This document shows, one piece after another, positions 1,381 to 26,128 of a stretch of 32,000 bases of DNA; within the stretch, counting starts at the first letter, position 1; the number at the start of each line of letters is the position of its first letter. The position numbers and the translations under genes were made by a program. Source of the DNA: Promethearchaeota archaeon (GTDB lineage: Archaea > Asgardarchaeota > Lokiarchaeia > Sigyniarchaeales > SOKP01); NCBI GenBank assembly GCA_030606485.1, contig JAUWGH010000005.1:90001-122000 (forward strand), in the 5' to 3' direction. Below the pieces are notes generated by a model. It did not search any database. It saw only the letters and a program-made list of their open reading frames with translations, and had not been told where the DNA came from.

Positions 1381-3870
1381 ATGAAAAATATCAATTCAAA
1401 GATGGATTTTGAAGATATTTTAGCCCTTGATAAAGTTATTGATTTAATTAAAGATTTTTCCGATAAAAATCCAATTAAGAAGTATAAAATTAATTTTAAG
1501 AAGATTAAAGAAAAGGTAAATGAATTAAAAAGTATAAAAGATAAAGATATTAAATCGAAATACAATTTATTTAAGACTATTTTAAGAAAATTAAAGTTAA
1601 TTATCAAGCGAGAATTCCATCCGGAGATATTTTTCATTATTGGAGGGCATGGGGGTGTAATAATCAATGATATTGGTTTTTGTGAATTTGACTCTCCTAA
1701 ATTTGCAATAAATCGCTTATTAGAAAAAATGGAACTTGCAATTAAAACCAATATGCCTTATCATATTGAAATTGCAATAAGTTGTTTGGAATGGTTGTAT
1801 AAAAAATATCCTGAAAAAATCTCGGAATTTTTAAGATTATTTAAACTTGGTAGGTTTGAAATAATTAATCCTACTTTTTCACAACCATACAGTTTAATCA
1901 TTGGTGCTGAATCGAATATTAAGCAATTCGAATACGGACTAAATTATTTAAAACAATTGGGATTAGATTGCACAATTTATTATTGTTCAGAAAGTTCGAT
2001 ACATCCTCAAATCCCTCAAATTTTAAAAGGATTTGAAATTGAATTTGGTTCCTTAAGGACTCGGCTTATTGGATTAAATCCCACTACCCCCTCTGGAAAT
2101 ATCGATTGGATAGGTTTAGATGATACAAAAATAAGTACAATCACAGAGCAATCTGGAGTCTTTAATGGAGAATATTGGCATGGAACATTCTTCAGAGAAA
2201 TTCCAAACCTCCTATTTCAATCTGTCTCGCGTCCTTTTATGAAATACATTGTGTATTCTTCTATTGAAGATTTTATAATGCCCCAACCTTATCAAGAAGA
2301 AATTTGGAGGCTTTCAAAATTTTTAGAAATCTTTGGAAAATTCATTACATGTTTTGAATTTTTTCAAAAATTTGAAAAGGATGGAGAGTTCAAATTCAGC
2401 CGGGATAATTTCGCATTAGCAGATAGTATCTTTGTTTCAAATAAACTATTCCTTAAAAATAAAAAATGTGAGATTAGTTTATTAACTGCTGAGATTTTAA
2501 ATTGCATTTTAGGGTTATTCAATGAGACATCAAATGATTCCTTTTTTGATGATTTGTGGAAGAAACTATTACTTACTCAAGCTCATGATAATTATGCAGT
2601 TCCATTCATACGATCAGGAGACTACTCTGCTCAACAATTGGGTCGTGAAGAATTACATAAATTAGAGATAAAAAATGATAAAATCTCAATTTCTGAATTA
2701 AGCTTCAAATTACAAAAAGAGATCCAAAATCAATGTAGAGATTATTCTAGTGAGGCTCTTTCTAAATTGGCAGAAAAATTGGGATCAAAAACTGAAGTTA
2801 TTAAAAACAATGATATCAATTTTCTAATATTCAACCCGACGGCAATTACGAGACGAGATGCCTTTTCAATTCAATTATCGTTAGAAGATCCTTCCAAAAT
2901 GACACTTATTGAAGATAATGAAGAAATTCCCTTTCAATATCACAATTCTACCTTGAAATTTATGGCTGAAGTCCCAGGAATAGGTTTCAAAATATATTCA
3001 CTAACCCAACAAAATGCTAAAATCTCTCAACCAAATACAGATTATTTTTATAAATTGAAAATTCTGGAAGATCTTAAGACAATTGAAATAAAATATAAGG
3101 ATAAAAATGTATGTGAATTAAAATTTCAATCAAAATTTGATTACAACCTATCAATAAAAAAGCATTATAAAGATAACATTGAAGAAAAATTCATATTGAA
3201 TGGAGAAATAAACGAAAAAACTTTCAAAATTGAAATTATTCAATATAACGGTGTAAATAGACTTGAATTCAATTTGGATTCTAATTCTTTAAGAGAAATA
3301 ATACTTATTCCCAAAATTGAGATTTCAAAATCTTTTATTAATTATCCATTTGGCATCGAAGAGACAAAAAGAACAAATATACAAACATTGGACTTTTTAT
3401 GGTTAAAAGGTAAAAATGAAGGAATAATTTTCATGCAAAAAAATAGTCAGAAATTCCATATTGACCGTTATAATTTCAAAATACGAAATTTCATAACTTC
3501 CAAAGGAAGATTTGAATTTGCTTTATCAATTACTAATGAAGATGAATTACATTCTACCTTAAACTATGCCAATTCCTTTCAATTTAAGTTATTCGGGATA
3601 CGACTTAATCATAATCATAAATTTGAAAAGAAATCTATGTCATTTCTTACAATAAACCAACCAGTTACACTCATTAACTTATGGAGACGAAAAAATAATT
3701 CCTATTTACGAGTATTTAATCCAAGTGATAAACAAAATAATATCCAATTTGAAGGAGCATTAATTAGAAATCAACTAAGAGAAATTAATTTTAATTACAA
3801 TGAAATAGGATCTAAAAAAAATCGAATAGATAAAGTTAATCCTTGGAAAATTCGAACTTTTAAAATTTAA
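1381..3870 (+). CDS. GH38 (alpha-mannosidase)-like protein with degenerate catalytic motifs
   Basis: Collinear with the intact GH38 at 28572: FEIINPTFSQP..GAESNIKQFEYG, PQIPQILK, LLLTQAHD, FLIFNP, EVPGIGFKIY, PFG, YLRVFN..NPWKIRTF. The HSHxD and D-x-FG motifs are replaced. Confidence 0.75.
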   Translation: MKNINSKMDFEDILALDKVIDLIKDFSDKNPIKKYKINFKKIKEKVNELKSIKDKDIKSKYNLFKTILRKLKLIIKREFHPEIFFIIGGHGGVIINDIGFCEFDSPKFAINRLLEKMELAIKTNMPYHIEIAISCLEWLYKKYPEKISEFLRLFKLGRFEIINPTFSQPYSLIIGAESNIKQFEYGLNYLKQLGLDCTIYYCSESSIHPQIPQILKGFEIEFGSLRTRLIGLNPTTPSGNIDWIGLDDTKISTITEQSGVFNGEYWHGTFFREIPNLLFQSVSRPFMKYIVYSSIEDFIMPQPYQEEIWRLSKFLEIFGKFITCFEFFQKFEKDGEFKFSRDNFALADSIFVSNKLFLKNKKCEISLLTAEILNCILGLFNETSNDSFFDDLWKKLLLTQAHDNYAVPFIRSGDYSAQQLGREELHKLEIKNDKISISELSFKLQKEIQNQCRDYSSEALSKLAEKLGSKTEVIKNNDINFLIFNPTAITRRDAFSIQLSLEDPSKMTLIEDNEEIPFQYHNSTLKFMAEVPGIGFKIYSLTQQNAKISQPNTDYFYKLKILEDLKTIEIKYKDKNVCELKFQSKFDYNLSIKKHYKDNIEEKFILNGEINEKTFKIEIIQYNGVNRLEFNLDSNSLREIILIPKIEISKSFINYPFGIEETKRTNIQTLDFLWLKGKNEGIIFMQKNSQKFHIDRYNFKIRNFITSKGRFEFALSITNEDELHSTLNYANSFQFKLFGIRLNHNHKFEKKSMSFLTINQPVTLINLWRRKNNSYLRVFNPSDKQNNIQFEGALIRNQLREINFNYNEIGSKKNRIDKVNPWKIRTFKI

Positions 3871-4743: not shown

Positions 4744-5874
4744 TTGAATTTAAAACCTAAATCAATAATGGAACCTTTCCAACTTTTAATTAAACCAGTT
4801 TCTTTTGATTGTAATCTAAGATGTAAGTACTGCTTTTATTTGAGAGTGGCTGATTTATATTCAAATAATGCACGCCCTCGTATGGATTATAAAGTTCTCG
4901 AAAGAATAATATCAAAATTCTTGCAATATCGTTTTAATGAATCTGTTTTCAATTGGCAAGGTGGGGAACCTACTTTAATTGGGCTCAATTTCTATAAAAA
5001 AGTTGTAGAATTCCAACAACAGTATGGTATGTCTGGACAAGCAATTGGAAATGCTCTTCAAACTAATGGAATTCTTATTAACGATGATTGGGGAAAATTT
5101 TTTAATGAATATCACTTTTTGATTGGTTTAAGTCTTGATGGACCCAAGCAAATCCATGATCGTTATAGAAAAAGTATTGGCGGTAAGTCAATTTGGGAAA
5201 AAGTAATGAAAGCCACTGAATGCTTAAAGAAAAATAATGTAGAATTCAATATATTATGCGTAATAAGTAAAGCAAATATTAATCGAGTTAAAGAGATTTA
5301 CAATTTCTTTATAAATAACGGTTTTTTTTATTTACAATTTATTCCCGCTCTTGAAGCAGATGAAACTGGTAAGAAAGCATCTTATTGCATTAATGCATCC
5401 CAGTATGGCAAATTTTTATGTGACCTCTATGATGAGTGGATAAATTCTAATCGACAAGCATCAATAAGAACTTTCGATGCAACCTTAGCTGGTCATTTAG
5501 GATATCCAATAGGATACTGCGCTCTCGAAGAAAAATGTGCAAATTATATAGTTGTAGAATGGAACGGAGATATTTATCCATGTGATTTCTTCGTCTATGA
5601 AAAATACAAATTAGGGAATATTTTACATAATAATTTTACGGAATTAATTGAAAAACGAAATACTATATTTGCTTTTCAAAAAGAACAGCTTCCTCAAGAT
5701 TGCTCGGAATGTGAATGGAAAAAATTGTGTTTCGGTGGATGTCTCAAAGATAGATTTTTCCCGGATAATCCACATCCAGAGAAAACATACTTTTGTGAAG
5801 GATATACAAAATTTTTTTCTTACACTAATAAATATTTCGAAGCACAAGCAAATAATTTAAAAAAAAGAATTTAA
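4744..5874 (+). CDS. Anaerobic sulfatase maturase (radical SAM/SPASM, AtsB/AslB family)
   Basis: IKPVSFDCNLRCKYCFY (CxxxCxxC), WQGGEPTL, NALQTNG, and the SPASM cysteines C-x5-C, YPCD, CSECEWKKLCFGGC, YFC. Start is TTG 4744 or the ATG about 8 codons later. Confidence 0.9.
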   Translation: MNLKPKSIMEPFQLLIKPVSFDCNLRCKYCFYLRVADLYSNNARPRMDYKVLERIISKFLQYRFNESVFNWQGGEPTLIGLNFYKKVVEFQQQYGMSGQAIGNALQTNGILINDDWGKFFNEYHFLIGLSLDGPKQIHDRYRKSIGGKSIWEKVMKATECLKKNNVEFNILCVISKANINRVKEIYNFFINNGFFYLQFIPALEADETGKKASYCINASQYGKFLCDLYDEWINSNRQASIRTFDATLAGHLGYPIGYCALEEKCANYIVVEWNGDIYPCDFFVYEKYKLGNILHNNFTELIEKRNTIFAFQKEQLPQDCSECEWKKLCFGGCLKDRFFPDNPHPEKTYFCEGYTKFFSYTNKYFEAQANNLKKRI

Positions 5875-5963
5875 TTCTATTATTATTTAATTATGAAATA
5901 ACACTTTCATCACGAACTTTTATACGAGGCTATCAATTATTACTTCTAATCCGAGTTCCTATA

Positions 5964-6535
5964 ATGAAAAAAAATCAAAAATATCAATTAAACAAAGAAT
6001 AAAAACAGCATTCAATTCAGCAAAACCACTTTTATTAAGACACCATCCATTATGTGAAAAATTTGAAGGACATACGTTTAGAATTAAAGGAATTGATTTC
6101 TGCATTGGATGCTTTATTGGATACCCAACTGCAATAATTACGATTATTTCCTTACCATTTACAGGATTATTCAATATTTTCACACACACCGATTTGTTAA
6201 TAATTTCAATTATTTTATTATCCAGTTTTTTGCTCAGTCTATTTGGCTTAACAAAAAGAAAATCCATTAAAATTATATCTAAGATTTCAATCGGACTTGG
6301 AGCAGGTTTTCTTTTTTGGAGTATATTTAACTCACCAAATCCATATAGCGTCAATTTTATAATATTTGGAATTACTTTTATCATAATACTATCCATATTA
6401 AATGCGTACCATGGATACGGAACATACAGAATATGTAAAAAATGTGAATATAAAGCTGATTGGAATAATTGCCCTGGTATGAGTTTCTTTAATAAACAAG
6501 GTAATTTTAAAAAGAAAAATATTGAGGAAAAATGA
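5964..6535 (+). pseudogene. DUF2085-like membrane protein with a 1-nt frameshift in an A8 run just after the ATG (true frameshift or sequencing error)
   Basis: ATG 5964 followed by A8 reaches TAA after 12 codons. The shifted frame (that of track ORF 6194-6535) is open from 5897 without a start codon and reads SKISIKQRIKTAFNSAKPLLLRHHPLCEKFEGHTFRIKGIDFCIGCFIGYP. One extra A restores a 190-aa ORF. Confidence 0.65.
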
Positions 6536-6546
6536 AAAAAAAGAAT

Positions 6547-6900
6547 TTATATTTTAGTTCCACAGTTAGGACAATAAATTACTTCAGATGATAATTCAGC
6601 TCCGCATAGAGGACAAAATTTATACTCCCATTTAGAAGGAATATCAGCCGTATTTGAGGGGGGTGTTATAATGATTGTTTGTGTTACTGGTTGAGTAGTT
6701 GGAGCAATTACTTCTGGTTGAGCTGGTGAAAAAGAAGAACTCCCACAAAATGGACAGACAGAAGATTGTAAGACATAATAAATTAAATAAAGAATCCATA
6801 AACACCCAGTACAACATAATAGAAGGAGAAAGGTCCCAACATTGAAATCTGGGGACTTAGGTACCACATTTCTTTTACACATATTACAGTATCTTGCCAA
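6547..6900 (-). CDS. LITAF-like zinc-ribbon membrane protein with C-terminal double zinc ribbon
   Basis: CNMC - hydrophobic segment (FLLLLCCTGCLWILYLIYYVL) - CPFC, then a P/T-rich linker and CPLC...CPNC. Confidence 0.7.
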   Translation of the reverse strand: MARYCNMCKRNVVPKSPDFNVGTFLLLLCCTGCLWILYLIYYVLQSSVCPFCGSSSFSPAQPEVIAPTTQPVTQTIIITPPSNTADIPSKWEYKFCPLCGAELSSEVIYCPNCGTKI

Positions 6901-7074
6901 TTTTCACGCCCTTAAAATCATTTATTTGACAATTAATATAGTAAAAAATAAGTTTTTATACTTATATATTGGTTCGAAATAAACAAATTTTGAAAATTAA
7001 AAAATTATACTAATGCCTATCATGCTCTCTATTTAGACAGAAAGTATTTTAATTTCAAAAAATTATGAATATTT

Positions 7075-7758
7075 ATGCTAATTGGAGACATTGAGATAAA
7101 CCCTACAAAAATAATATGCTTGGGTTTAAATTATAAAGATCACATCGAAGAAACGAGACCTGGACAAGCCCTACCAACTGAACCCGTATTATTCACAAAA
7201 TCTCTAAATTGCCTAATCCAAAATAAGGAACCAATTGTATATCCTAAAATGTTATATGAAAATCGAAAATATAATCGTGTGGATTATGAAGTAGAACTAG
7301 CTTTTATAATAAAAGATAAATGTAAAAATGTTTCTATTGAAGATGCATATGACTATATCTTAGGATACACAATATTTAATGATGTAACCGCCCGTAAAAT
7401 GCAAATAAAGGACATTACTTCTAAACAACCATGGTTTCGCTCAAAAAGTATTGATACATTTGGACCAATAGGCCCTAGAATTGTTGATACAAATACAATT
7501 TCAGATCCCCAAAACTTGAAAATTGAATTAAAACTAAATGGAGAAATAAAACAATCATCAAACACTAAAAACCTTCTATTCAATGTTCCAGAAATCTTAC
7601 ATTATATAAGTAGGTTTTTTACAATGGAACCAGGCGATATAATTGCAACCGGTACTCCAAGCGGAATAAGTCCCATTAAACCCGGAGACCTAATTGAAGC
7701 AACAATCGAAAAAATTGGCACGTTATCAAACCCTGTAATATTAGAAGGTGAAAAATAA
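7075..7758 (+). CDS. Fumarylacetoacetate hydrolase family protein
   Basis: IICLGLNYKDH, FTK, DYEVELAFII, NDVTAR, KSIDTFGPIGP, GDIIATGTPSG. Confidence 0.93.
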   Translation: MLIGDIEINPTKIICLGLNYKDHIEETRPGQALPTEPVLFTKSLNCLIQNKEPIVYPKMLYENRKYNRVDYEVELAFIIKDKCKNVSIEDAYDYILGYTIFNDVTARKMQIKDITSKQPWFRSKSIDTFGPIGPRIVDTNTISDPQNLKIELKLNGEIKQSSNTKNLLFNVPEILHYISRFFTMEPGDIIATGTPSGISPIKPGDLIEATIEKIGTLSNPVILEGEK

Positions 7759-7807
7759 GAATTAATTACTATAAAAAAATAGAATTTAAAAAATTTTAAA
7801 ATTTATC

Positions 7808-8581
7808 TTACTGATTTTTCTTTTCTTCTTTTTCTTTTTCTCTTTCTTCTCTCTCGGATTCTTCCTTGCCTTCAAGTCGAAGAACATCGATGATCTTTAT
7901 GATTTCTGCTGCTTGTTTATATCTCTCTTCTCTAAATTTATCCTTATTCAATCTCTTATCGAAATTAATTGGAGTACCAATCTTTATTTTCAGCCGAGTA
8001 CTAGGAATAATGTTAAATAGGGTCTTTTGTTCGGTGTATATTGCAATTGGAATAATTGGTGCGTCAGCAGCAACTGCAAACTTTATAATAGCTGCCATTG
8101 ACTTGAGTTGCACTTCGTCAGTTAATTTTGCCTCAGGCGTCATCGCTACAAGATCACCCTTTTTGTTTAAATAATCAAAAACCTTTTCTACTGGCTCTAT
8201 ATCTTCTTTGCTCTCTGTACTTCGAAACATTCCTAACATCTTTAAAACTGGCCCAGCAACAGGATTTTTTATGAGTTTTGGGTGTAACATAAAATGTATC
8301 TTTCTCCCAGACACTTGACTTATAATTAGCATATCAAGCATTACATTTTTACTAATTGTTGTAAGAATTGCTTTCCCGAACAACGGAATATTCTCATTCC
8401 CGTCAATGGCTAAATCGTTAAATAACATTAACGCAGAACCACCAATATATTTTAAGGCCCCATAAAGTAAATCACCCGCCACCGCCTTCATATTCACTTT
8501 CTCTGGCTCCTTTTCTTCTTCAAGAGAAACCGATTTATTAGCTATGGTAATTTCCGATTTTTTATCAATATTTGATTCCAT
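7808..8581 (-). CDS. PlsC/lysophospholipid acyltransferase-like protein lacking the catalytic His
   Basis: Fold motifs are present (IDGNENIP..G, KIHFM..PKL, LGMF, AMTPEA, APIIPIAI, IKIGTPI). The HxxxxD motif reads KNVMLD. Confidence 0.75.
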   Translation of the reverse strand: MESNIDKKSEITIANKSVSLEEEKEPEKVNMKAVAGDLLYGALKYIGGSALMLFNDLAIDGNENIPLFGKAILTTISKNVMLDMLIISQVSGRKIHFMLHPKLIKNPVAGPVLKMLGMFRSTESKEDIEPVEKVFDYLNKKGDLVAMTPEAKLTDEVQLKSMAAIIKFAVAADAPIIPIAIYTEQKTLFNIIPSTRLKIKIGTPINFDKRLNKDKFREERYKQAAEIIKIIDVLRLEGKEESEREEREKEKEEKKNQ

Positions 8582-8636
8582 ATTTCTTTACCTCTTTTTA
8601 TAATTTTTTTCTAATCTAAAAGCCTTTTTTCATCCT

Positions 8637-8831
8637 TTAAAGTTTGTATATAAGTTCATTTAATTCGTTCATACGTTTCTCGTAGAAGGCTTTTATATCT
8701 TTCTCGGATACAAAATTTGGTATCATTGTTTCCGTAAAATAATCAAATAAAGTCGATAATTTTGTCTTATGCTTTAAGGTATCTAAATATTCCTTTCCCA
8801 TATTAAATAATTGTTCAATAAATTTAGACAT
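8637..8831 (-). CDS. Hypothetical 64-aa protein
   Basis: ATG at 8831 lies 2 nt after the TAG of the activase gene, a more plausible start than the track's 8870. Sequence MSKFIEQLFNMGKEYLDTL..., amphipathic helical character. Confidence 0.6.
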   Translation of the reverse strand: MSKFIEQLFNMGKEYLDTLKHKTKLSTLFDYFTETMIPNFVSEKDIKAFYEKRMNELNELIYKL

Positions 8832-8833
8832 CT

Positions 8834-9862
8834 CTAAAACACCTCCCATTTTCCGCACCTTGACCCCCATCTGGCAATAACTTCATTATTCTCAACGATG
8901 GAGCATTCTACTATGGAGCAATTATTAGGGCAATCCCCACAATTGAACGTTCTCGTCCTAAAATCAATATCAGTCATTCTAAGCCCTCTAAATACTGTAT
9001 CAATTTCATTATTTATATAATATTCTCGTGAAAGAATTGCCATTCCAAGCGCGCCCATGAGTACATTAAGACCATTTTTAGGAACAGTTATTTTACAGCC
9101 TAAGTGTCTTTCAAAAGCTTGAATAATCCCCTTATTAAATGAAACTCCTCCTTGAAATACAATAGGCTCTTCTAAATCTTTTCCTTTTGATAAATTATTT
9201 AAATAATTCCTTACTAAAGAGTCGCATAACCCAGCAATAATATCCTCCTTTGAATATCCAGAATTTTGCTTGTGAATCATGTCTGATTCTGCAAACACGG
9301 TACATCGACCAGCAATTGAAGCAGGATTTTTTGATTTCACGGCATAATCACCAAAATCCTCAATTGGAATATTAAGGCGAGTTGCTTGGTGATCGAGAAA
9401 ACTACCAGTGCCAGCTGCACATACACTATTCATAGCGAAGTCTACAATGATTCCATCCCTGAGAATAATTATCTTTGAGTCCTGGCCCCCAATTTCTAAA
9501 ATGGTTCTTACATCTGGATACAACGACTGAGTTGCCACAGCATGTGCGATTATTTCTGTTTTAGCAAGATCTCCTCCAACCACCGCCTTAGTTAAATATC
9601 TTGCAGATCCAGTGGTTCCACATGCTCTTATTGCATATTCCTGCAGCTCTGGATTTTTCTCAATTTGACTTCTCATTTCTGCCATCCCAAATTTGACGGA
9701 ATCTATTGGACTGCCTTGATTTCGCAAAAAAACTTGAGATAAAACCCTTTGATCATTATCCATTAATACAAATTTGAGGGTAACTGACCCGACATCTATA
9801 CCTAGATAGCTATCGTGTTTTCCATCTTTTGGCACGTGTGTTTTATCGTTAACCTGAACCAT
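8834..9862 (-). CDS. ATP-dependent [4Fe-4S] activase (BadF/BadG/BcrA/BcrD, HgdC-type) with C-terminal Cys-rich linker
   Basis: GIDVGSVTLK, TTGSAR, TEIIAHA, EIGGQDSK, MNSVCAAGTGSFL, IAGRCTVFAES, FQGGV. C-terminal FNCGDCPNNC...WGSRCGKW. Confidence 0.93.
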   Translation of the reverse strand: MVQVNDKTHVPKDGKHDSYLGIDVGSVTLKFVLMDNDQRVLSQVFLRNQGSPIDSVKFGMAEMRSQIEKNPELQEYAIRACGTTGSARYLTKAVVGGDLAKTEIIAHAVATQSLYPDVRTILEIGGQDSKIIILRDGIIVDFAMNSVCAAGTGSFLDHQATRLNIPIEDFGDYAVKSKNPASIAGRCTVFAESDMIHKQNSGYSKEDIIAGLCDSLVRNYLNNLSKGKDLEEPIVFQGGVSFNKGIIQAFERHLGCKITVPKNGLNVLMGALGMAILSREYYINNEIDTVFRGLRMTDIDFRTRTFNCGDCPNNCSIVECSIVENNEVIARWGSRCGKWEVF

Positions 9863-9875
9863 ATTTTATAAACAC

Positions 9876-11066
9876 CTATCCAGCTTGAATAAATTGAAAT
9901 ATAGAATTATATAGGCTACCCCCATGAACCTCATATGAGGGCTCCTTTGATTTCTTTTCTAATTTAATCTCCTTCTTTTGTCTCTTTTGTTTACGCCTTC
10001 CTTGGATTAAATCTACAAATGCTTCTAAACGTGTTCTGAAGCCACTTTCAGCAGCATGTTCATCAAATGAGAAGAAAATTATTGGTAAATTATATTTTTT
10101 ATAAAGAGTATTTGTCAATATTGTTCTAGCTGAGATTTCAGGCATACAAGTGAAAGGATATGCATGGATGAAGCCATCGAAGCCAGACCTTGCTCTATCG
10201 ATATACTCACCTATGACCCATACAGCTTCTCCTCCGATATCCATTGGCATATAAGGGCGAGCTAGATATTCTAACCACTTCCTATGAAAATTTAAATGAA
10301 ATTTATGAATAACCCAATCGTAAACACTTAGATTCTGATATAGTTGAACCCCCATTTCGCCGAGTTTACGCCGAATATCGAGATTATCATGGGATTCTAA
10401 TGTGATATGGATCTCTCCTGATAATGCCACTTTTAAGGGGTCACGACTTCGGTCTATATCAATTTTTTTAAAATCATTTGTGATAACGGATTTAAATTTA
10501 CGTAATTCATTTATTTTATTAGTTTTATCAAGTTTTATTAGGAGTTCCTTTACAACTCGAGTTGTATCCCCCTTATTTCGCTCATAGCATCTAATTAATC
10601 CCTCTGCAGTTGAAATATCTTCGATATATTTTGTTTTTTTTATAAAATATTGAACCGCTTTGACAGCTTTTGTATATAGAAATAGATTTTTTGTTGGAGT
10701 TACATCAAATAGGGTTTTTACCCATTTAAATTCTAATAAGTCTGCTTGGTCAAGAGGTATCACACGAATATTTTTATAACCCATATCATGTAAGATCCGT
10801 TCCTGAACAGCATGGTAAAATCCAAATCTACAGGGCCCACAATCTATAGCCATAACCAAAGTATCCGCTCCCTTCTTAATCGCACTTACAAAATCTCCAA
10901 GAGTTACTTTAAAGGGAAAGCAGACAAACTCAGGAGAGTATTTGACTCCGATTTTCACAGCTTCACGATTCGTGGGATCTGGTAATACCACTTTCACACC
11001 CATACACTCAATGAGAGTCTTGAAAGCAGGCCAACTATACCCCATGTTAGGAAATGATACTATCAT
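9876..11066 (-). CDS. 2-hydroxyacyl-CoA dehydratase-like / PlsR-like Fe-S subunit
   Basis: SFPNMG, SPEFVCFPFKVTLGD, CGPCRFGFY, PFTCMPE, FDEHAAESGFRTRLEAF. Confidence 0.8.
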   Translation of the reverse strand: MIVSFPNMGYSWPAFKTLIECMGVKVVLPDPTNREAVKIGVKYSPEFVCFPFKVTLGDFVSAIKKGADTLVMAIDCGPCRFGFYHAVQERILHDMGYKNIRVIPLDQADLLEFKWVKTLFDVTPTKNLFLYTKAVKAVQYFIKKTKYIEDISTAEGLIRCYERNKGDTTRVVKELLIKLDKTNKINELRKFKSVITNDFKKIDIDRSRDPLKVALSGEIHITLESHDNLDIRRKLGEMGVQLYQNLSVYDWVIHKFHLNFHRKWLEYLARPYMPMDIGGEAVWVIGEYIDRARSGFDGFIHAYPFTCMPEISARTILTNTLYKKYNLPIIFFSFDEHAAESGFRTRLEAFVDLIQGRRKQKRQKKEIKLEKKSKEPSYEVHGGSLYNSIFQFIQAG

Positions 11067-11225
11067 TAAACTCTTATTGCTCCTCTTCTATTTTTATATT
11101 CTGGTTCAATAGCTCTAAGATTTATATCTATTAGACTTAATTTTCTCGAGTTTTTAAATATTTAAATGCAAACGTATTTTCTCAAATAACTTTCTATACA
11201 AATAGGTAAGATCATATAAAAAAAT

Positions 11226-11286
11226 TATGAATTATTTCATATTTTTAGAATTCTTAGAAAATGGCGCTTTAAATTTAAAATGCCAT
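11226..11286. promoter_or_regulatory. Inverted repeats in the intra-cluster gap: TATGAA-N4-TTCATA, and a 26-bp imperfect hairpin (possible terminator/operator)
   Basis: 11226-11241 TATGAATTATTTCATA. 11261-11286 ATGGCGCTTTAAATTTAAAATGCCAT, followed on the minus strand by TTT, about 40 nt after the stop of the 11326 gene. Confidence 0.35.
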
Positions 11287-11325
11287 AAATTTTTTGCTTA
11301 TAAATTTATTTCCCTTCGTTTTTTT

Positions 11326-12444
11326 CTATGCTTCTTCAAAGATTTTTAAATCTTGCTTTTCTTTCATTTCATCTAGTTTTCTTTTTTTCCGTTTAATCAT
11401 TTCCACGAAACTTTCAATTCTTGTAAGCAGTCCAGCTTCACCTGTATGTTCATCCATTATTATCTGCAAGAAAGGAAGCCTAATTACCTTCATATCCCTC
11501 ATAATTAACTCAGCTATCAAGCTGTCGGGGCCACACGCAAAGCTGATTAGAAATATAACTCCGTCAATCTCTTTACGTCCTTGGACTAGATAATATCTAA
11601 TTGCGGCTAAAATCTCGTCTTCATGAAGCCAATATGGTCTAAATTGCTTATTAATAATTACTGGCTCCTTGAATAGTATTTCTGGTAAATTTTCAATAGT
11701 TAGCACATCTACTCCGTGTCTAGTTAGTTTTTTCTGAAAGTCTAAATTCACGTATGTATCAAAAATATTATATCCATGCCCAAGTAGGAGGAATTTAATA
11801 TTTTTGGGGGTTTTCTTTTTAAGCATTTTAAATGGTTTGTCTTTTTCTACTAGTTTTAATGCATATCCAACGGGAGTCCCTTTTCTTAAGAAGTCTTGAT
11901 ATTGTTTATGGTATTTTTTAGCTTTTTCATATGCCTGTAAAGCTTCGCGTTGTCCTTTTCCAAGTGTTTTAGCAAGCGAAATGATTGAATTTGAGATTGG
12001 ATTTTCTTTTACATTAATAGTAAAGGTTAAAATTTTGGGGATATTTGGCAAGGTTCTTATAACATCAGGGAGTGATAAAAACTTAGGACAGAAATATCCC
12101 TCTACTCGCTCGGATACGTATCGTGGGACAAAAATATAATCCAATTCGGGATATTCTCTCATTAAATATAATATATGTCCATAATATACTTTTACAGGCA
12201 AGCAAAGTTCCCCAAATCCTTGAAATGCTCCTTCTTCCACTATTTGCTTATAAGTGGGAGGACTAAGTATAAGTTCGCAACCTAACTCTTCCAATAATTT
12301 TTTCCAAAAAGGAAAAAACCTATAAAAATGAAGAGCTCGGGGAATGCCCACTTTAATTTTCGATTTCTTGTCATATCGATAAGATTTCAACGCACTTTTT
12401 AGATGTTTTAGTTCTCGTTGGTTTGTCGTTTTCTTCGACTGCAT
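11326..12444 (-). CDS. DUF2229 (CoA enzyme activase-related) Fe-S subunit
   Basis: KVGIPRAL..Y..FPFWKKLLEELG, ELCLPVKVYYGH, FCPKFLSLPD, SFACGPDS, DEHTGEAGLLTRIESF. Confidence 0.85.
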   Translation of the reverse strand: MQSKKTTNQRELKHLKSALKSYRYDKKSKIKVGIPRALHFYRFFPFWKKLLEELGCELILSPPTYKQIVEEGAFQGFGELCLPVKVYYGHILYLMREYPELDYIFVPRYVSERVEGYFCPKFLSLPDVIRTLPNIPKILTFTINVKENPISNSIISLAKTLGKGQREALQAYEKAKKYHKQYQDFLRKGTPVGYALKLVEKDKPFKMLKKKTPKNIKFLLLGHGYNIFDTYVNLDFQKKLTRHGVDVLTIENLPEILFKEPVIINKQFRPYWLHEDEILAAIRYYLVQGRKEIDGVIFLISFACGPDSLIAELIMRDMKVIRLPFLQIIMDEHTGEAGLLTRIESFVEMIKRKKRKLDEMKEKQDLKIFEEA

Positions 12445-12467
12445 TCTGGCTGAAAACCTCGAAACAC

Positions 12468-14147
12468 TTACAGATCTGGTGAGTTGTAAACTTGTAAATC
12501 CTTAATTCGAGCCATCATTTTATTTGTTAAATCCTTTAACACTTCAAATGATGGCATTTCTTGTGCATCCCAATATTTTGCGTGTTCCATAAATGGTTCT
12601 CCCGCTTTCAATACACATGCTTTTCCGAAATTGAGCATTTTAGCGTGTTTAGGGTATATGTCCTCAGTCCCGGTTATTCCAACTGGAATAATTGGAACTT
12701 TTGCGTCTATTGCTAATCGAACACATCCTGTATGACCTTCTAATAAATTACCGTGACCACTATTTGTGGTTCCCTCCGGATATGTGCATACAAGATGTTC
12801 CGCCTCTAGCTGTTCTTTAGCATAAAGATAACTTTCTACATCATGCTCACCTCGTTTGAGAGGGAAAGCATGATGACTCCTAACCCATGCATTTACAATC
12901 GGAACTCTAAAGAGTGATTGTTTAGACATTTGATATAATATTCGTTTTGGTTTTTGCGTAATAGCTGTAGCAATCATAATTACATCCCATTCAGAATTAT
13001 GGCTTGGAGCGATCAAGGCGCCTCCTTCTTTTGGAATATACTTATCGAAGTCAATGGTTTTATATGGAATTAATGTATTGCACAATTGATGCACGAGATT
13101 TCCAGAAAACATTTGTATTGCTTCTTGAAAGTGTGTTCGCAAATCAAACACTTCTAAAGCTCTCAAAAATCCATACCATGTATCATCGATTAATTTTAGA
13201 ATTTTTTTACCAGTAGATTTGGGTTTTAACAAACTTTTTAATGCATCATGTTTTTGTAATCTATCCATATCTGATGGAGAATCTATAGAAAGCGAGAGCT
13301 CAGGATCTTTCTCTGATCCCTTGCTATACCCCATTTCAATTAAATCTTTAATTTTTTCTCTAAGTTCATCCGATAATTTCCTGGCATCTGGATAGCTGAG
13401 TTCTTTTCCATAGTAATCAGTGTAATAAATTGGTTTTCCAATACGAACAAGCACTCGTGTAGGCTTCATTAATAATTTACCCTTAGCTAAAGCACCAGAA
13501 GTCCCTAATACACAAGATGGAACAATTGGACAACCTGTTTCTACCGCTAATCGAACAGTACCTGTATGAAATTCTTCTTTGAGAATACCATCATATGAAC
13601 GAGTTCCTTCTGGAAACATACCTAAATATTCCCCATCTAGCATAATTTTTTTTGCTGTGTTATAAGCTTTTGTATCTTTTTCCCCACGATGTAATGGGAA
13701 AGCTCCAAGATTTGTAAAGAGTGTCGTCACTAATGGTGTTTCGAAATTCTCAATTTTACTCATCCAACGAATTCGTCTTTGGATGGATGAACTAACAAAG
13801 AAAGGATCCAAATGTGAAACATGGTTTGACGCAACTATTCCGCCTCCATAATCTGGAAACATTTCTCCTTCAACTCGCAGATCCCAATATATTCGAGCAA
13901 TATTCCGGATAATTGGAAATGCACCCCAATAAAATAGTCTATCGGTTTTTTCTAGTAGATCAAATGTACCAAAAAATTTCCTAACCAATCTGTTTAGCGG
14001 ATCAATCGGATTATATTTCAAGATAAAATTAAGTATTTCTTGAAACTGTTTTGAAGCGCCAGAGACATGCTTCTTCTCCTCTTTAATTTCTTCTCCTTTA
14101 GTTGTTTGTATAGACAAACTTTCGAGATCGATTTCTTCCATTTCCAT
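12468..14147 (-). CDS. plsC: Tandem two-domain PlsC-family glycerolipid acyltransferase
   Basis: Domain 1: NHVSHLD, WMSK, LGAFPLHRG, FPEGTRS, PIVP. Domain 2: SHNSEWD, QMSKQSLF, AFPLKRG, YPEGTT, PIIPVGITG. Both have an intact HxxxxD. Confidence 0.9.
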   Translation of the reverse strand: MEMEEIDLESLSIQTTKGEEIKEEKKHVSGASKQFQEILNFILKYNPIDPLNRLVRKFFGTFDLLEKTDRLFYWGAFPIIRNIARIYWDLRVEGEMFPDYGGGIVASNHVSHLDPFFVSSSIQRRIRWMSKIENFETPLVTTLFTNLGAFPLHRGEKDTKAYNTAKKIMLDGEYLGMFPEGTRSYDGILKEEFHTGTVRLAVETGCPIVPSCVLGTSGALAKGKLLMKPTRVLVRIGKPIYYTDYYGKELSYPDARKLSDELREKIKDLIEMGYSKGSEKDPELSLSIDSPSDMDRLQKHDALKSLLKPKSTGKKILKLIDDTWYGFLRALEVFDLRTHFQEAIQMFSGNLVHQLCNTLIPYKTIDFDKYIPKEGGALIAPSHNSEWDVIMIATAITQKPKRILYQMSKQSLFRVPIVNAWVRSHHAFPLKRGEHDVESYLYAKEQLEAEHLVCTYPEGTTNSGHGNLLEGHTGCVRLAIDAKVPIIPVGITGTEDIYPKHAKMLNFGKACVLKAGEPFMEHAKYWDAQEMPSFEVLKDLTNKMMARIKDLQVYNSPDL

Positions 14148-14158
14148 TTTTTATTACC

Positions 14159-14950
14159 TCATAATGATTCTGTTTTTAATTTTTTTTGAGCTTGAGATTT
14201 AATAATGCGACCAGTTTCGACTCCAAGTAAAGGAAGGATATCAACTATGGATTCTAATAGTAAATCTGGCTCGTATTCAGCTAAAAGTTCCCTTGTACAA
14301 AGACCACTCGATACTCCTATTGTCCAGAAACCTGCTTTTTTACCTGCTTCAATATCTGTAGGCATATCTCCAATAACTATAAAATCCTCTCTATTGTAGG
14401 ATTTATAATGATTCAAGGGAGGTTCAACACTTGCAGGGTCTGGTTTTAATGCTGGGAGTTTATCTTGGCCATAAATATCTAAAAAGTAACTCTCAAGTTC
14501 TTCCCGCCTTAAATGGCGTAAGATACTTTCTGTAATATTATGTGAAATAATAAAAAGATCACAATGTTTTGAGAGAGTTTCTAAAAGTAATTTTGAGCCT
14601 ATATGAAATTTAGCTTCTTTTGAAAATTCTTGATATTTTGCAAATATTTCTATTGCAATTCGTAATTTTTTTAATAACCGGTGATTTTCAAGCACAGTAA
14701 CATATTTAAAAATGCTATAAGATTGGAGTATTATTTGGGACATTGGATATCCTTGAACTGATTCTAAAATTGCGCCGATTTCTTGTAATGAAACATCCAT
14801 GTTTGCATTGATAGAGCGCTTATCGAAAACCTCAGTCACTGCTTCATGCAGAGGTTCTCTAACGTCAAGGAGCACTCCATCAAAATCAAATATCACTCCC
14901 TTAATATTATGCCTTTGAAGCCGTTCAATGAGTTCTTGGTCGCGTTTCAT
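14159..14950 (-). CDS. HAD-superfamily phosphatase
   Basis: IFDFDGVLLD (motif I), ISHN (motif II), KPDP (motif III), IGDMPTDIEAG (motif IV). Confidence 0.9.
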   Translation of the reverse strand: MKRDQELIERLQRHNIKGVIFDFDGVLLDVREPLHEAVTEVFDKRSINANMDVSLQEIGAILESVQGYPMSQIILQSYSIFKYVTVLENHRLLKKLRIAIEIFAKYQEFSKEAKFHIGSKLLLETLSKHCDLFIISHNITESILRHLRREELESYFLDIYGQDKLPALKPDPASVEPPLNHYKSYNREDFIVIGDMPTDIEAGKKAGFWTIGVSSGLCTRELLAEYEPDLLLESIVDILPLLGVETGRIIKSQAQKKLKTESL

Positions 14951-15303: not shown

Positions 15304-16264
15304 CTAAAATCCCATAAAAAATAACACATATCCAACTATATCAAAACAGACATAGCTTATACAATAAATAACAATAATCCTATTTTGATAATTTTTGTTT
15401 TGAATAAATTGTTTTATATAATTAATAAATGCAGGAAAAATATAGATTTGATGTCGTGGTCCGCTTATACTCGAACGCCATATTAAATTAAGAAAGTCAT
15501 CGTTATAATATGTTGTAGTTCCAACCAATGTCCCACTACTATTGCTTTCAATAAATTCTAAAAATAATCCCTCTTGAAATAAAAATTGGATATTTAGAAT
15601 TAAGAGAAAAAGTCCAAAAAAGAAGAAGAGAATAATTTTTCTAGATGATTTGAGAATTAAAAGTGGAAAAAATATTATTAATGCAGGTTTAAACATTCCT
15701 AAAGCAAGAATTAAACTGGCAATAATATTGCCAAGTATTACGTATTTTTCATCTCGAGATCTTCCTGTTTTTTCTAAAATAAATAAAGAAAATATGCCGC
15801 ATGCCATTAGGATAAAATCTGAATTACCAGAAAAAACCTCGTTAATTATAGCGTAGTTTAAAATTAAAATAAAGAAGGTAATTTTTTCTACATTTGAATA
15901 TTTGTTGTTTTTCAGAATATGATACCAACAAGCAATCAATAAAGAAATGCTTAAAATCCACCAAATGATTAATCCAGATTCAAATGTGAAGAAATTTATA
16001 TAGAAAAAAATAATAAAAAAAGAAGGAGTATAGATAAACCATTTGTATTCGTAAATATTATTCGGAAAATAGGAAAAAGCTTTTTTGAATATCCAATAAT
16101 CAACAAAAGGATGATTATCAGAAAATGGAATAAATGTTAATTTATACCAGATTAAAATGAGATATTATCAATGGATAAAATAAAGCTATTACGATTGCTA
16201 TTTTTTTTATTTTAAAATAGCTTACTTCTAAATAATTCTTTTTTTCTCCAATAACTTTATTCAT
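15304..16264 (-). pseudogene. Frameshifted polytopic membrane protein, GT-C/GT87 (DUF2029)-like
   Basis: The frame of track ORF 15304-15939 is open up to 16164 (..PFVDYWIFKKAFSYFPNNIYEYKWFIYTPSFFIIFF..). An ATG ORF in another frame at 16264-16142 supplies an N-terminal TM helix. Hydrophobic fragments in other frames continue to about 15123. The family call is tentative. Confidence 0.45.
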
Positions 16265-22262: not shown

Positions 22263-22706
22263 ATGGGGAGACCTCATAGAATTCGCTATGTTGAAAGATT
22301 TCCAGATTTTACGTATTTTAAACCCCAAAGTGATTCTTTTAAAAAAGGTTTTGAGGTAATTTTAACCGTTGCAGAATTTGAAGCATTAAGATTAAAACAT
22401 CACGAAAGAAAAACACAAATAGAGTGTGCTGAACTGATGAATGTCTCACAACCCACTTTCTCTCGAATATTAGATTTAGCTCATAAAAAAATTACAGAAG
22501 CATTATTACACGGTAAAGCAATTCGAATTGCAGGGGGTCCAATCGGAATAAAAAAACTCTTTATTGGTTATGGATGTTTAAATTGTTTTAATGAATGGCA
22601 AGATGGAAAAGCATCAGAAATTAATAAAGAATCTGTAGTATGTCCTGAATGCAATTCAAAAAATTTGTATTTCTTAAAAAAAGATATGCTGCAACAAATG
22701 ACCTAA
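22263..22706 (+). CDS. DUF134 HTH protein with C-terminal zinc ribbon
   Basis: MGRPHRIR, LTVAEFEALRL, TQIECAELMNVSQPTFSRIL..AHKKITEALLHGKAIRIAGG, CLNC...CPEC. Confidence 0.9.
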   Translation: MGRPHRIRYVERFPDFTYFKPQSDSFKKGFEVILTVAEFEALRLKHHERKTQIECAELMNVSQPTFSRILDLAHKKITEALLHGKAIRIAGGPIGIKKLFIGYGCLNCFNEWQDGKASEINKESVVCPECNSKNLYFLKKDMLQQMT

Positions 22707-22707
22707 G

Positions 22708-23154
22708 CTATTTTTTGCTTTCAAAATATTTTTTTAATACTTTATTTAGGGTGTTTACAGCCAATAAAGGACAATGAGTATGACTTGAAGGCAGTTTTTT
22801 TAATTCCTTTATAATATCATCAGGTGTAATTCTTAAGGCTTCTTCAATACTTTTATTTTGTGCCATAATCGTGAGTTGGCAACCCGAAGCAACCGATGGC
22901 CCACAACCATCAGTTATGAAAGTTATTTTCTCTATAACATTATCTTTTTCGTTGATTTTTAAAAAAAACTGCATTGTATCTCCGCAAGGTCCTAAGAATT
23001 TATCTTCAACTGTTGGATTTTCCATTTTTCCCCAATTTTTGGGATTATGAGATAACTCAATCACTCGCTTAGAAAATGTCTTGGACTCTTCGTCATCGAT
23101 CTCCTTTTGGAGGTTTTTTACGAATTCTTCGAATTGATCATTGAGATTATTCAT
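22708..23154 (-). CDS. iscU: IscU/NifU-type Fe-S scaffold protein
   Basis: NPKNWG, GPCGD, TDGCG, HTHCP: three conserved Cys plus the Asp and His. Confidence 0.88.
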   Translation of the reverse strand: MNNLNDQFEEFVKNLQKEIDDEESKTFSKRVIELSHNPKNWGKMENPTVEDKFLGPCGDTMQFFLKINEKDNVIEKITFITDGCGPSVASGCQLTIMAQNKSIEEALRITPDDIIKELKKLPSSHTHCPLLAVNTLNKVLKKYFESKK

Positions 23155-23214
23155 AATAAAAAGAAATTAAAAAAAAATAAAAATTTTATCTTCAAATATT
23201 TTATTTATTATATT

Positions 23215-23595
23215 TTATTCATGAGAATGTCCATCTTCTTTTGCAATTCCGTAGCCCTTTCCTCCACCCGGAGAACACAAACTTTCTCCTCCTTCTAATG
23301 TTCCATCTTTTATTTTTTGAATGACATCATCTATTCTACCGGTAGCTCCAAGAATTACATCTATTCCATATTGCTTAAAAAATTCTTGAGCACGCCACCC
23401 CATACCACCAGCGATCATAACATTTACTCCATTTTGGCTCATAAATTGTGGAATAGTTCCGGTTGCATGACCAGGATTGTTAATTTCTGTTCGATTTACT
23501 ATTACTCCATTTTCAATATCCAACAAAGTATAAGAGGGGCATCTTCCAAAATGTGCAGAAACTGTTCCAGAATCTGTACTAATAGCAACTTTCAT
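23215..23595 (-). CDS. NifB/NifX (FeMo-co biosynthesis-like) family protein
   Basis: VSAHFGRCPSY, NPGH, VMIAGGMG.RA, C-terminal CSPGGG..HSHE. Confidence 0.88.
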   Translation of the reverse strand: MKVAISTDSGTVSAHFGRCPSYTLLDIENGVIVNRTEINNPGHATGTIPQFMSQNGVNVMIAGGMGWRAQEFFKQYGIDVILGATGRIDDVIQKIKDGTLEGGESLCSPGGGKGYGIAKEDGHSHE

Positions 23596-23666
23596 AATAT
23601 TTATACCTACTATTTTTGATTTATAAATTTACAATATTATTTATATTCAATTTTTATAAAAAATAA

Positions 23667-24596
23667 TTATATTTTTTGTATTATATTTTTAATATTTTTA
23701 TATATCTCTTTTATAGCAATGCTTGCTTTTGAGTTTGGAGCATATTCAACCACTGGTTGAGCATTCGAAATTGCCCGTGCCACGGAAAAATCAAAAGGAA
23801 TTCTCCCAATAACATTATAGTTTTTTTCAATTATATATTGCTTAAATTTTTCTTGAAATTCACTTTCTAAATCTGCTTTATTAACAATAATACTAAATGG
23901 AATTTTAAATTGATTAGTTACTTCAATCACTCGTATCATATCGTGTAAGGCAGAGGGTGTAGGTTCTACCATAGCAATAACATAGTTAAGTCCGGAAATT
24001 GTTGCAATTACCGGGCATCCAATTCCAGGTGGTCCGTCTATTACTTCTAACTGCGCAGAAATTGATTTATTTACTTCTTCAGCAAAATTCTTACATTCAG
24101 TAACCGTTTTACCTGAAGTTGTAGAGCCTAATATAGTTTCGCCATATATTAAAGGTATATCATTTATTGTTGTATAAGATTTAATTACTCCACTCTTTAC
24201 TGCTTCAATTAAAAATGCTTTTTCAGGACATAAATATGCGCACGCTCCACAGCCTTCACATGAAAGATAATCTATAATTGGAATTTGTTGTTCATCATTC
24301 CAATATAGTGCATTAAATTCACAATAATGTTCGTCAATACATTTTTTACAATGCACACATTTTTCTTCCAGAAAATTAGCTTTTAGTGTAGTATATAAAT
24401 CTTTGTTCACAATATCACTCTTCGATTTGAATAGTAAAGCTAAATTTGGTGCATCTACATCACAATCTAATAAAATTACACCTTTAATCTCTGGATCTTT
24501 CCTTGCCAGATATCCCAAAGCTGCAGCAATAGAAGTTTTTCCGACTCCCCCCTTTCCGCTTAAAATACCTATTTTAAATGGTTCACTCTGACTCAG
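23667..24596 (-). CDS. MinD/ParA-family ATPase with 4Fe-4S ferredoxin insert; probable non-canonical CTG start
   Basis: The track ORF starts at 24518, after the P-loop. The in-frame upstream sequence encodes ILSGKGGVGKT. There is no ATG/GTG/TTG before the in-frame stop at 24615-17. CTG at 24596 is 8 nt after GAGGTG. Other motifs: DCDVDAPN, CxxCxxC, CEGCGAC..CP, DGPPGIGCP, EPTP. Confidence 0.85.
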   Translation of the reverse strand: MSQSEPFKIGILSGKGGVGKTSIAAALGYLARKDPEIKGVILLDCDVDAPNLALLFKSKSDIVNKDLYTTLKANFLEEKCVHCKKCIDEHYCEFNALYWNDEQQIPIIDYLSCEGCGACAYLCPEKAFLIEAVKSGVIKSYTTINDIPLIYGETILGSTTSGKTVTECKNFAEEVNKSISAQLEVIDGPPGIGCPVIATISGLNYVIAMVEPTPSALHDMIRVIEVTNQFKIPFSIIVNKADLESEFQEKFKQYIIEKNYNVIGRIPFDFSVARAISNAQPVVEYAPNSKASIAIKEIYKNIKNIIQKI

Positions 24597-24601
24597 CTTT
24601 A

Positions 24602-25543: not shown

Positions 25544-25560
25544 CTAAAATGAAAAAATAG

Positions 25561-26043
25561 TTAAGATTGGCGTCGTCCCATACCGCCACCGCCCCCCATT
25601 CCACCGCCACCGCCCATTCCACGACCGCCACCGCCCATTCCACGACCACCACCGCCCATCCCAAAATGTGCTCCAACACTTGAATTACTTAAAGGAGTAA
25701 GCTTTCCTTCAATAAGTAATTTAATTGCTTCATTAACTGTTAAATTCTGTTGTAGCATTTGGTAAATTTTTATATTTAATGAATTAAGCGCATAAAATGC
25801 ATTTGGACCTAACTGTCCAACAATAGCTTCTGTTGCACCATTATTTCCCAAAATCTGTCCTGATTGAATTCCAGCACCACCCATTGCTCCTGCAGCTGTA
25901 TTACTAACAACATTCACAGAAGCAATTTCATTATTGACGAGCTTAACAAATGTAAATGATTCACACCTACCAAATCGTGGATTAATAGAGGACTGAAGAC
26001 CTCCTTCTCCGAAAGTAGGCACTGCAATAATCCTATCTACCAT
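25561..26043 (-). CDS. NifB/NifX family protein with Gly/Met/Arg-rich C-terminal tail
   Basis: PRFGRCESF, GAMGGAGIQ, IVGQLGPNA, tail (GMGGGGR)n. Confidence 0.88.
   Translation of the reverse strand: MVDRIIAVPTFGEGGLQSSINPRFGRCESFTFVKLVNNEIASVNVVSNTAAGAMGGAGIQSGQILGNNGATEAIVGQLGPNAFYALNSLNIKIYQMLQQNLTVNEAIKLLIEGKLTPLSNSSVGAHFGMGGGGRGMGGGGRGMGGGGGMGGGGGMGRRQS
25604..25663. repeat. 21-bp coding tandem repeat (encodes GMGGGGR)
   Basis: CCGCCACCGCCCATTCCACGA is exact at 25604-25624 and 25625-25645, with a diverged partial third copy after it. Confidence 0.85.
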
Positions 26044-26128
26044 AATTAATTATTCCTCTTTATTTTTAATATTTGTATATGAGTATAATTTAAAAATTTT
26101 CTTATAAAAAATTATAAAAAAAAAATAA

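Follow-up and report, generated by a model that had tools for sequence, protein, structure and literature searches.

Organization and conservation of the module

The seven-gene module described here lies in a 32,000-nt stretch of DNA from an uncultured Promethearchaeota archaeon (GenBank assembly GCA_030606485.1, contig JAUWGH010000005.1, positions 90,001-122,000 of the forward strand; hereafter the window). It joins PlsC-type acyltransferases to an iron-sulfur (Fe-S) enzyme of the same branch as the plasmalogen synthase PlsA and the glycerol ester reductase Ger. Seven co-oriented open reading frames (ORFs) on the minus strand (7808-14950) encode, in order, a HAD phosphatase, a double PlsC (PlsC2), two DUF2229-type subunits (Red1 and Red2), an ATP-dependent activase (Act), a 64-aa protein, and a PlsC-fold protein that lacks the catalytic His (PlsC3) (Table 1). 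By analogy with PlsA and Ger, the module may be a lipid operon in which an ester made by PlsC2 is reduced to a vinyl or alkyl ether by Red1/Red2. We give this ester-to-ether reading a probability of roughly 0.45 and regard it as the most economical one.

The linkage of acyltransferase to reductase is conserved. In a phylum-wide sample of 150 genomes, with Red1 orthologs defined at an identity of at least 62%, Red1 occurs in 23 of the 25 genomes of the window's family and elsewhere in one low-quality bin; both sister-family genomes have a form at 47-50% identity. The double PlsC lies directly upstream of Red1 in all 23 family genomes with Red1. It also adjoins Red1 in the sister family, where the order is PlsC, His-less PlsC, Red1, Red2, Act. 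In every genome that holds Red1, the double-PlsC PF01553 domains are on the same contig and within ~250 nt of it. The PlsCs of the cluster (2-3 per genome) account for the only PF01553 domains in the family genomes. The window's own genome (G000; 3.75 Mb in 13 contigs, rated 100% complete, with the window at C5:90001-122000) has all of its PF01553 and all of its PF09989 domains within this cluster. Red2 orthologs, at the same identity threshold, were found in ~60 of 81 family genomes and in all 13 genera.

The complete seven-gene order recurs in two other loci (L028 and L030) and, with insertions, in two more (L024 and L029), and the flanking genes are kept within the genus only. Since the module recurs in other genera while its flanks do not, the arrangement is not due to chance. 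Elsewhere among the Asgard archaea, three families (f14, f22, and f25) have PlsC without this system, and another (f5) has a Red1/Red2/Act set at 33-36% identity without PlsC.

One member of the window's family, G083, is also rated 100% complete and carries a natural reductase-less variant, HAD-PlsC2-(~970 nt)-PlsC3 (locus L042, G083:C6:64000-78000, at 5142-9421). Red1, Red2, Act, and the small ORF are missing from this locus, and the queries used gave no DUF2229-type match anywhere in the genome. The reverse case, a family genome with the reductase and no acyltransferases, was not found in our sample. Both the tight linkage across the clade and the survival of the acyltransferases in G083, where the reductase is missing, argue for a single pathway shared by the acyltransferases and the Fe-S enzyme. 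This variant and the lack of any family genome with the reductase alone suggest that acylation comes first; the variant also fits an optional reduction step.

An earlier, sequence-only reading of this DNA had reported seven co-oriented genes, and all of them are where it placed them, with Pfam and NCBIfam domain calls that agree. It had also proposed to look for conserved acyltransferase synteny across Asgard genomes, which we found in the window's family and its sister family. Its statement that most genes are separated by a few to about 55 nt is true of most of the gaps (11, 23, 259, 13, 2, and 55 nt from HAD to PlsC3), the 259-nt gap between Red1 and Red2 being the exception. In other genera the Red1-Red2 junction spans 0.4-2.2 kb or is occupied by two paralogous DUF2229 systems (L023, L026, and L029). 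The spacer is an insertion site in those genera, and an internal promoter within it may divide the module into two transcription units. No Rfam family or tRNA was detected in scans of the window.

Table 1. Features of the module in the window, with lengths and domain scores.
Feature	Positions	Strand	Length and matches
HAD phosphatase, HAD-IA type, first gene of module	14159-14950	-	263 aa; PF13419 HAD_2 80.5 bits
PlsC2, double PlsC-type acyltransferase	12468-14147	-	559 aa; two PF01553 domains 180.7 bits; TIGR00530 151 vs cut-off 103
Red1, DUF2229 + HGD-D tail	11326-12444	-	372 aa; PF09989 156.4 bits; PF06050 23.8 bits, sub-threshold
Red1-Red2 spacer, AT-rich, 259 nt	11067-11325	none	sequence read directly
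Red2, second HgdD-like subunit	9876-11066	-	396 aa; PF09989 N-terminal fragment 37.2 bits; HGD-D tail 20.6 bits
Act, single ATP-dependent activase, C-terminal Cys4 tail	8834-9862	-	342 aa; PF01869 BcrAD_BadFG 152 bits; TIGR00241 192 vs cut-off 125
64-aa conserved protein, no family	8637-8831	-	no Pfam/NCBIfam match above cut-off
PlsC3, His-less PlsC-fold	7808-8581	-	257 aa; PF01553 38.9 bits; TIGR00530 40.6 vs cut-off 103

Placement of the iron-sulfur enzyme

Red1 and Red2 both pass the PF09989 (DUF2229) cut-off of 29.4 bits (156.4 and 37.2 bits) and both fail the PF06050 (HGD-D) cut-off of 28.4 bits (23.8 and 20.6 bits), where only the final ~60 residues match. Elsewhere, G000 has three canonical HGD-D sets with scores of 140-293 bits (C8:2995-5284, C8:34792-37164, and C10:679715-681975). 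Among 14 control genomes, DUF2229 was detected in Thermotoga maritima, Lactococcus lactis, Bacteroides thetaiotaomicron, and Thermus thermophilus, and HGD-D only in Escherichia coli and Methanocaldococcus jannaschii. T. maritima carries Ger (PMC13159169), and Lactococcus cremoris, a relative of L. lactis, has a tested PlsA (PMC12838417). Hidden Markov models (HMMs) of Red1 and Red2 align to residues ~640-1000 and ~1000-1420 of full-length proteins of 1355-1460 aa with the architecture BBDHDDH, which are similar in size to the characterized PlsA genes (PMC12838417). These matches place the Fe-S genes with PlsA and Ger, in the DUF2229-type branch, and not with the HgdAB/Fld/Bcr type. The sequence-only reading had named as its refuting case that they might be dehydratases of amino acid fermentation; the sub-threshold HGD-D scores and the three canonical sets elsewhere in the genome speak against this.

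Red1 is the most conserved gene of the module (62-73% identity across the family) and has exactly three invariant Cys (C81, C119, and C304). Red2 has invariant C49, C79, and C307, plus a clade-specific Cys76. In Act, the cluster-bridging Cys148 and Cys187 are invariant, as is a C-terminal tail of the form CxxCxNxC...GxxC, and homology to solved activases is clear (E-values of 1e-34 to 1e-37). The same Cys4 motif is present in a bacterial split Act, in Asgard BBDH proteins, and in 10 of the 10 full-length BBDHDDH proteins checked, where it sits at the junction of activase and DUF2229. The classical 264-aa activase of G000 does not have it. The use of this motif as a family mark is our own observation and not a published criterion. 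An AlphaFold2 model of Red1 (predicted local distance difference test, pLDDT, 86.6) has HadC, DCCP, and MbdO/BzdO as its top folds (Foldseek probability 1.0, TM-score ~0.5).

A close likeness is to PlsA/PlsR of Clostridium perfringens (CPE1194/1195) and the single-gene forms of Enterococcus faecalis and L. cremoris. They share with the window co-linear activase, Red1, and Red2 modules, the cluster Cys, the Cys4 motif after the activase (in the full-length proteins checked), and an anaerobic host. PlsA, which is one chain of ~1415-1640 aa or is split over two genes, has two activase domains (PMC12838417), whereas the window has three genes and one activase. Unlike PlsA, the window enzyme is tied to a double PlsC, a His-less PlsC, a HAD phosphatase, and a 64-aa protein. 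Ger (T. maritima Tmari_0479; Desulfatibacillum alkenivorans SHJ90043) has the architecture BBDHDDH, represented in the window by B / DH / dH (PMC13159169).

Likeness to the dehydratase, reductase, and DCCP group, i.e., HadBC/HadI (3O3M/4EHT), HgdAB/HgdC (1HUX), MbdONPQ (9GAI), BzdNO (8S02), and DCCP (6ENO, 7YYL), lies in the Red1 fold and in ATP-driven electron injection. Sequence identity to this group is only 12-16%, and the match to PF06050 is the sub-threshold one described above. The aerobic ether pathway of eukaryotes and myxobacteria (GNPAT, AGPS, FAR, and PEDS1) likewise has a PF01553-family acyltransferase and an ether-forming step, but there a flavoenzyme exchanges acyl for alkyl on dihydroxyacetone phosphate and an O2-dependent desaturase follows, so that the chemistry is unrelated.

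The acyltransferases, the phosphatase, and the small protein

The N-terminal half of PlsC2 has the motifs NHxSHxDP and FPEGTRS and the C-terminal half has HNSEWD and YPEGT, all of them invariant in 11 orthologs. Both halves keep their catalytic motifs intact. The best match in the Protein Data Bank (PDB), by sequence and by fold, is the T. maritima PlsC (5KYM), a lysophosphatidic acid (LPA) acyltransferase with the same HX4D and PEGT motifs. The difference is that PlsC2 fuses two complete domains in one 559-aa chain. Its AlphaFold2 model is of moderate quality (pLDDT 68.7) and has two long helices ahead of each catalytic core. In an ESM Atlas search, the cluster of the fused double-PlsC form was 100% archaeal. 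There are also weak NCBIfam matches to the OlsA and Aas models.

In PlsC3, a Lys replaces the catalytic His (KNVMLD) and PEAK replaces PEGT. Its five orthologs have K, E, or D at the His position and PE(A/S)K in place of PEGT. The description of a His-less PlsC in the sequence-only reading therefore holds across orthologs as well. PlsC3 is probably a conserved, non-catalytic pseudo-enzyme, to judge from these substitutions, and it is kept beside PlsC2 in the reductase-less G083.

The HAD protein has a DxD nucleophile motif (FDFDGVL, residues 21-27) and scores below every NCBIfam equivalog cut-off. Its orthologs (43-52% identity) immediately precede PlsC2 in loci L025-L030 and in L042 and are ~4 kb upstream of it in L022. 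The 64-aa ORF has a maximum reading frame of 77 codons; the conserved 64-aa form starts 2 nt after the activase stop. In three other genera its orthologs (55-58% identity) also lie between Act and PlsC3 without exception, and within the genus the identity rises to 86-94%. A prediction of a complex between PlsC2 and Red1 scored 0.01, which is evidence neither for nor against one.

An ORF upstream of HAD (15304-15939) was considered as a member of the module and rejected; it matches no Pfam family, and none of the loci fetched, those of the same genus included, holds a relative.

Proposed function and alternatives

The following scheme goes beyond the gene content, the motifs kept or lost, the conserved linkage, the superfamily, and the fold, all of which are observed; from these we infer the substrates, the Red1/Red2 heterodimer, the ester-to-ether chemistry, and the order of steps. 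HAD, PlsC2, and PlsC3 would together make or remodel an acyl-ester glycerolipid. PlsC2, which has the only active PF01553 domains of the genome, would move a fatty acyl group, most likely taken from acyl-CoA, onto an acceptor of the glycerol-phosphate type. Candidates for the acceptor are glycerol 3-phosphate, glycerol 1-phosphate, and a lyso-archaeal lipid. PlsC2 may acylate twice, because the genome has neither PlsY nor PlsB. HAD would take off a phosphate, and PlsC3 could bind lipid or acyl-CoA without catalyzing transfer. A dimer of Act would hydrolyze ATP and drive a low-potential electron into the Red1/Red2 heterodimer, each subunit of which may hold a cluster on three Cys, and this enzyme would reduce and dehydrate the carbonyl of the lipid ester to a vinyl or alkyl ether.

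The choice of acyl donor follows from G000, where 18 AMP-binding ligase genes and a single carrier-protein-like ORF make acyl-CoA the likely donor. Together with the FAD oxidases and the three HGD-D sets, the ligases indicate a strong commitment to acyl-CoA and radical dehydratase chemistry. Twelve genes in G000 encode FAD_binding_4 domains.

A wider claim would be that one Lokiarchaeia family makes its own fatty-acyl-derived ether glycerolipids, or acyl/alkyl-isoprenoid hybrids (e.g., on geranylgeranylglyceryl phosphate, GGGP), through PlsC2 and a split PlsA-like reductase. The double PlsC may then do the acylations that PlsY/PlsB and PlsC do in bacteria. We consider this wider claim doubtful.

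Several points weigh against the ester-to-ether reading. Two activase domains (BB) are conserved in all alkyl-ether producers (PMC13159169), and neither PlsA nor Ger works with dedicated acyltransferases. The second activase domain that kinship with these enzymes would predict is not there: the window has one, in a single 342-aa gene, although an Act homodimer could perhaps stand in for BB. Alkyl and alkenyl products are not distinguishable from sequence (PMC11868695). Red1, Red2, and Act share only 24-31% identity with full-length proteins of PlsA/Ger architecture. In a maximum-likelihood tree rooted on Red2, the PlsC-linked Red1s and the flavoprotein fusions described below form a clade (99/99). 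This clade is sister (88/81) to one (100/100) that contains every full-length and BBDH form sampled; the tree contains no characterized PlsA or Ger. The kinship to PlsA/PlsR/Ger implied in the sequence-only reading thus survives as membership of the same DUF2229-type branch and not as orthology, and the phylogeny that it called for, run here without characterized enzymes, puts Red1 outside the full-length clade and next to it. The nearest relatives outside the Red1 clade are fusions to a flavoprotein like cytokinin dehydrogenase and DprE1, or stand alone in bacteria, so that the chemistry in this branch may be diverse.

Gaps among the lipid genes of G000 count on the same side. The genes proposed earlier for such a search were gpsA, glpK, plsY, and plsB. 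PlsY and PlsB are absent from the genome; for GpsA (PF01210) there is no clear gene, only weak Rossmann-type matches; and there are two glycerol-kinase-like genes, both below the equivalog cut-off. CdsA (PF01148) has no clear gene in G000, only weak matches, and a search for glycerol-1-phosphate dehydrogenase (PF13685) gave weak, ambiguous ones. As cited in PMC13400652, the lipids of a cultured Lokiarchaeon have been analyzed in a single published study, and they were exclusively archaeal.

One alternative is that the Fe-S enzyme targets not the ester bond but the acyl-CoA donor or an acyl chain, by radical dehydration or reduction of a hydroxy-, enoyl-, or otherwise modified acyl thioester, and that the PlsCs then install an unusual acyl group. 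The solved folds nearest to Red1 (HadBC, Mbd/Bzd, and DCCP) act on CoA thioesters or small molecules, which fits this idea, as does the position of the Red1 clade outside the clade of full-length PlsA/Ger architecture. Some genomes also have an acyl-CoA dehydrogenase, an old-yellow-enzyme homolog, and a 3-hydroxyacyl-CoA dehydrogenase beside PlsC2-Red1, but such β-oxidation-type neighbors are not conserved. DUF2229 has so far been tied only to lipid-ester enzymes (PMC13159169, and the control genomes above), and for CoA-ester chemistry G000 already possesses the three canonical HGD-D sets. We find the alternative unlikely. A role in the salvage or remodeling of foreign glycerolipids, bacterial or eukaryotic, from the sediment, for catabolism and not for the cell's own membrane, seems to us rather improbable. 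It would suit the cold-seep and marine-sediment habitat, the 18 acyl-CoA-ligase-type genes and 12 FAD_binding_4 oxidases, the lack of PlsY and of a clear GpsA for de novo synthesis, and the absence of predicted transmembrane (TM) helices from all seven proteins. Yet no lipase, transporter, or β-oxidation gene is conserved in the module, and two intact acyltransferase domains favor synthesis over breakdown.

The acceptor might also be something other than a glycerolipid, with acylation of a different hydroxyl or amine (e.g., in an amino-acid lipid, a polyol, or a sugar or isoprenoid derivative) and processing of the product by the Fe-S enzyme and the phosphatase. PF01553 does include OlsA-type and other non-glycerolipid acyltransferases, there are the weak OlsA and Aas matches, and the sister FAD fusions resemble enzymes of prenylated substrates (cytokinin dehydrogenase and DprE1). 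PlsC2 passes the TIGR00530 cut-off for acylglycerol-phosphate acyltransferases (AGPAT), however, and its best match in both sequence and fold is the LPA acyltransferase 5KYM, which leaves a non-glycerolipid acceptor quite improbable.

Relation to published work

PlsC and PlsY have been reported in Asgard archaea (PMC6737245, PMC6431249). Ger homologs have been published from Lokiarchaeota and Heimdallarchaeota, with the suggestion that these lineages make bacterial-type ether lipids (PMC13159169). The general idea of Asgard Ger homologs and PlsC with possible bacterial-type ether lipids is therefore already in print (PMC13159169; PMC6737245; PMC6431249). The published Ger screen required a query coverage of at least 30% and an E-value of at most 1e-50 (PMC13159169), thresholds that would favor long forms over split subunits of ~370 aa. 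Long forms do occur in Asgard genomes, as BBDH proteins of 865-985 aa and as proteins of ~1400 aa. In the literature that we searched on DUF2229, plasmalogens, and Asgard acyltransferases, we found no description of the operon coupling of acyltransferase and reductase.

The origin of eukaryotes, with their fatty-acyl ester lipids, from an archaeal host with isoprenoid-ether lipids has long been a puzzle. Scattered PlsC, PlsY, and Ger homologs without a defined pathway are what has been published from Asgard archaea, whereas the operon is a defined seven-gene unit with a natural reductase-less variant. It offers a testable candidate route to non-isoprenoid lipids in Asgard relatives of eukaryotes. 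If real, this route would mean that archaea closely related to the host lineage of eukaryotes have crossed the lipid divide naturally. An ether or ester product would show non-isoprenoid lipid synthesis in Asgard archaea; any other outcome would mean a new reaction for DUF2229-type radical enzymes.

Organism and habitat

The contig is archaeal and not bacterial. A family-B DNA polymerase and a Rad51/RadA-like gene lie inside the window. The probable Asgard origin proposed from sequence is borne out by the GGGP synthase encoded in the genome and by the Promethearchaeia archaeon isolate ABR01, which belongs to the same genus and has a Red1 that is 94% identical. The class Promethearchaeia (Lokiarchaeia) takes in Promethearchaeales and Helarchaeales. 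The sister family of the window's family includes Candidatus Harpocratesius sp.

The NCBI organism names of close homologs (Thor-, Hermod-, and Odinarchaeota) conflict with the genome taxonomy. One metagenome-assembled genome (MAG) named "Hermodarchaeota" (GCA_048885525.1, G049, with locus L022 on G049:C5) falls in the window's own family, so name-based claims that these genes are spread "across Asgard phyla" would be wrong.

DNA nearly identical to the window was found in cold-seep and marine-sediment metagenomes from ten studies. Metatranscriptome contigs from two libraries of one study overlap parts of HAD (98% identity), PlsC2 (95%), and the Act/Red2 junction (92%). DNA carry-over is possible in RNA libraries, so this cover is a weak hint of expression only, and parts of the cluster without such contigs are not thereby shown to be silent.

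Related systems and neighboring genes

Other DUF2229 systems accompany the module in its own family. One paralogous system consists of an ~815-aa fusion of a VAO-type flavoprotein to a Red1-like domain (Red1'), with its own Act' and Red2' (L026 1781-6641; L033 7269-11409; L010 9001-11448). We considered the fused flavin domain as AGPS-like, i.e., as a second link to ether lipids, and rejected this since its best PDB matches are cytokinin dehydrogenases and DprE1. A third system, beside PlsC2-Red1 in some genera, is the BBDH form (two activase domains plus DUF2229, 865-985 aa; L009 11073-15070; L025 11019-15404; L026 6975-11335). Its partner, a protein of 462-474 aa, matches no Pfam family and resembles the Red2 HMM only faintly. 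In some genera this system and the flavoprotein one both sit in the Red1-Red2 spacer. The BBDH proteins group with the full-length proteins of PlsA/Ger architecture in the tree. The β-oxidation-type neighbors (acyl-CoA dehydrogenase, 3-hydroxyacyl-CoA dehydrogenase, and old yellow enzyme) were tried as module members and rejected, as they are not conserved across loci.

A second locus in G000 (L021, G000:C10:62000-80000, at 6118-13893) encodes a VTT/DedA-family protein, a VIT1 protein, and the classical 264-aa activase, here without an adjoining dehydratase. After these come a GlcD/AGPS-type FAD oxidase, a CCG Fe-S protein, and an FGGY kinase similar to glycerol kinases, whose score of 461 bits is below the TIGR01311 cut-off. 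Within the window, the genes at 22263-26554 encode a DUF134 protein, a NifU-like protein, two Nitro_FeMo-Co-family proteins, two MinD/ParA-type ATPases with ferredoxin inserts, and a DUF5320 protein, and are probably a cluster for the handling of Fe-S or metallocofactors. Two large GH38-type (alpha-mannosidase-like) genes lie at 1381-3870 and 28572-31289, the first of them a weak match.

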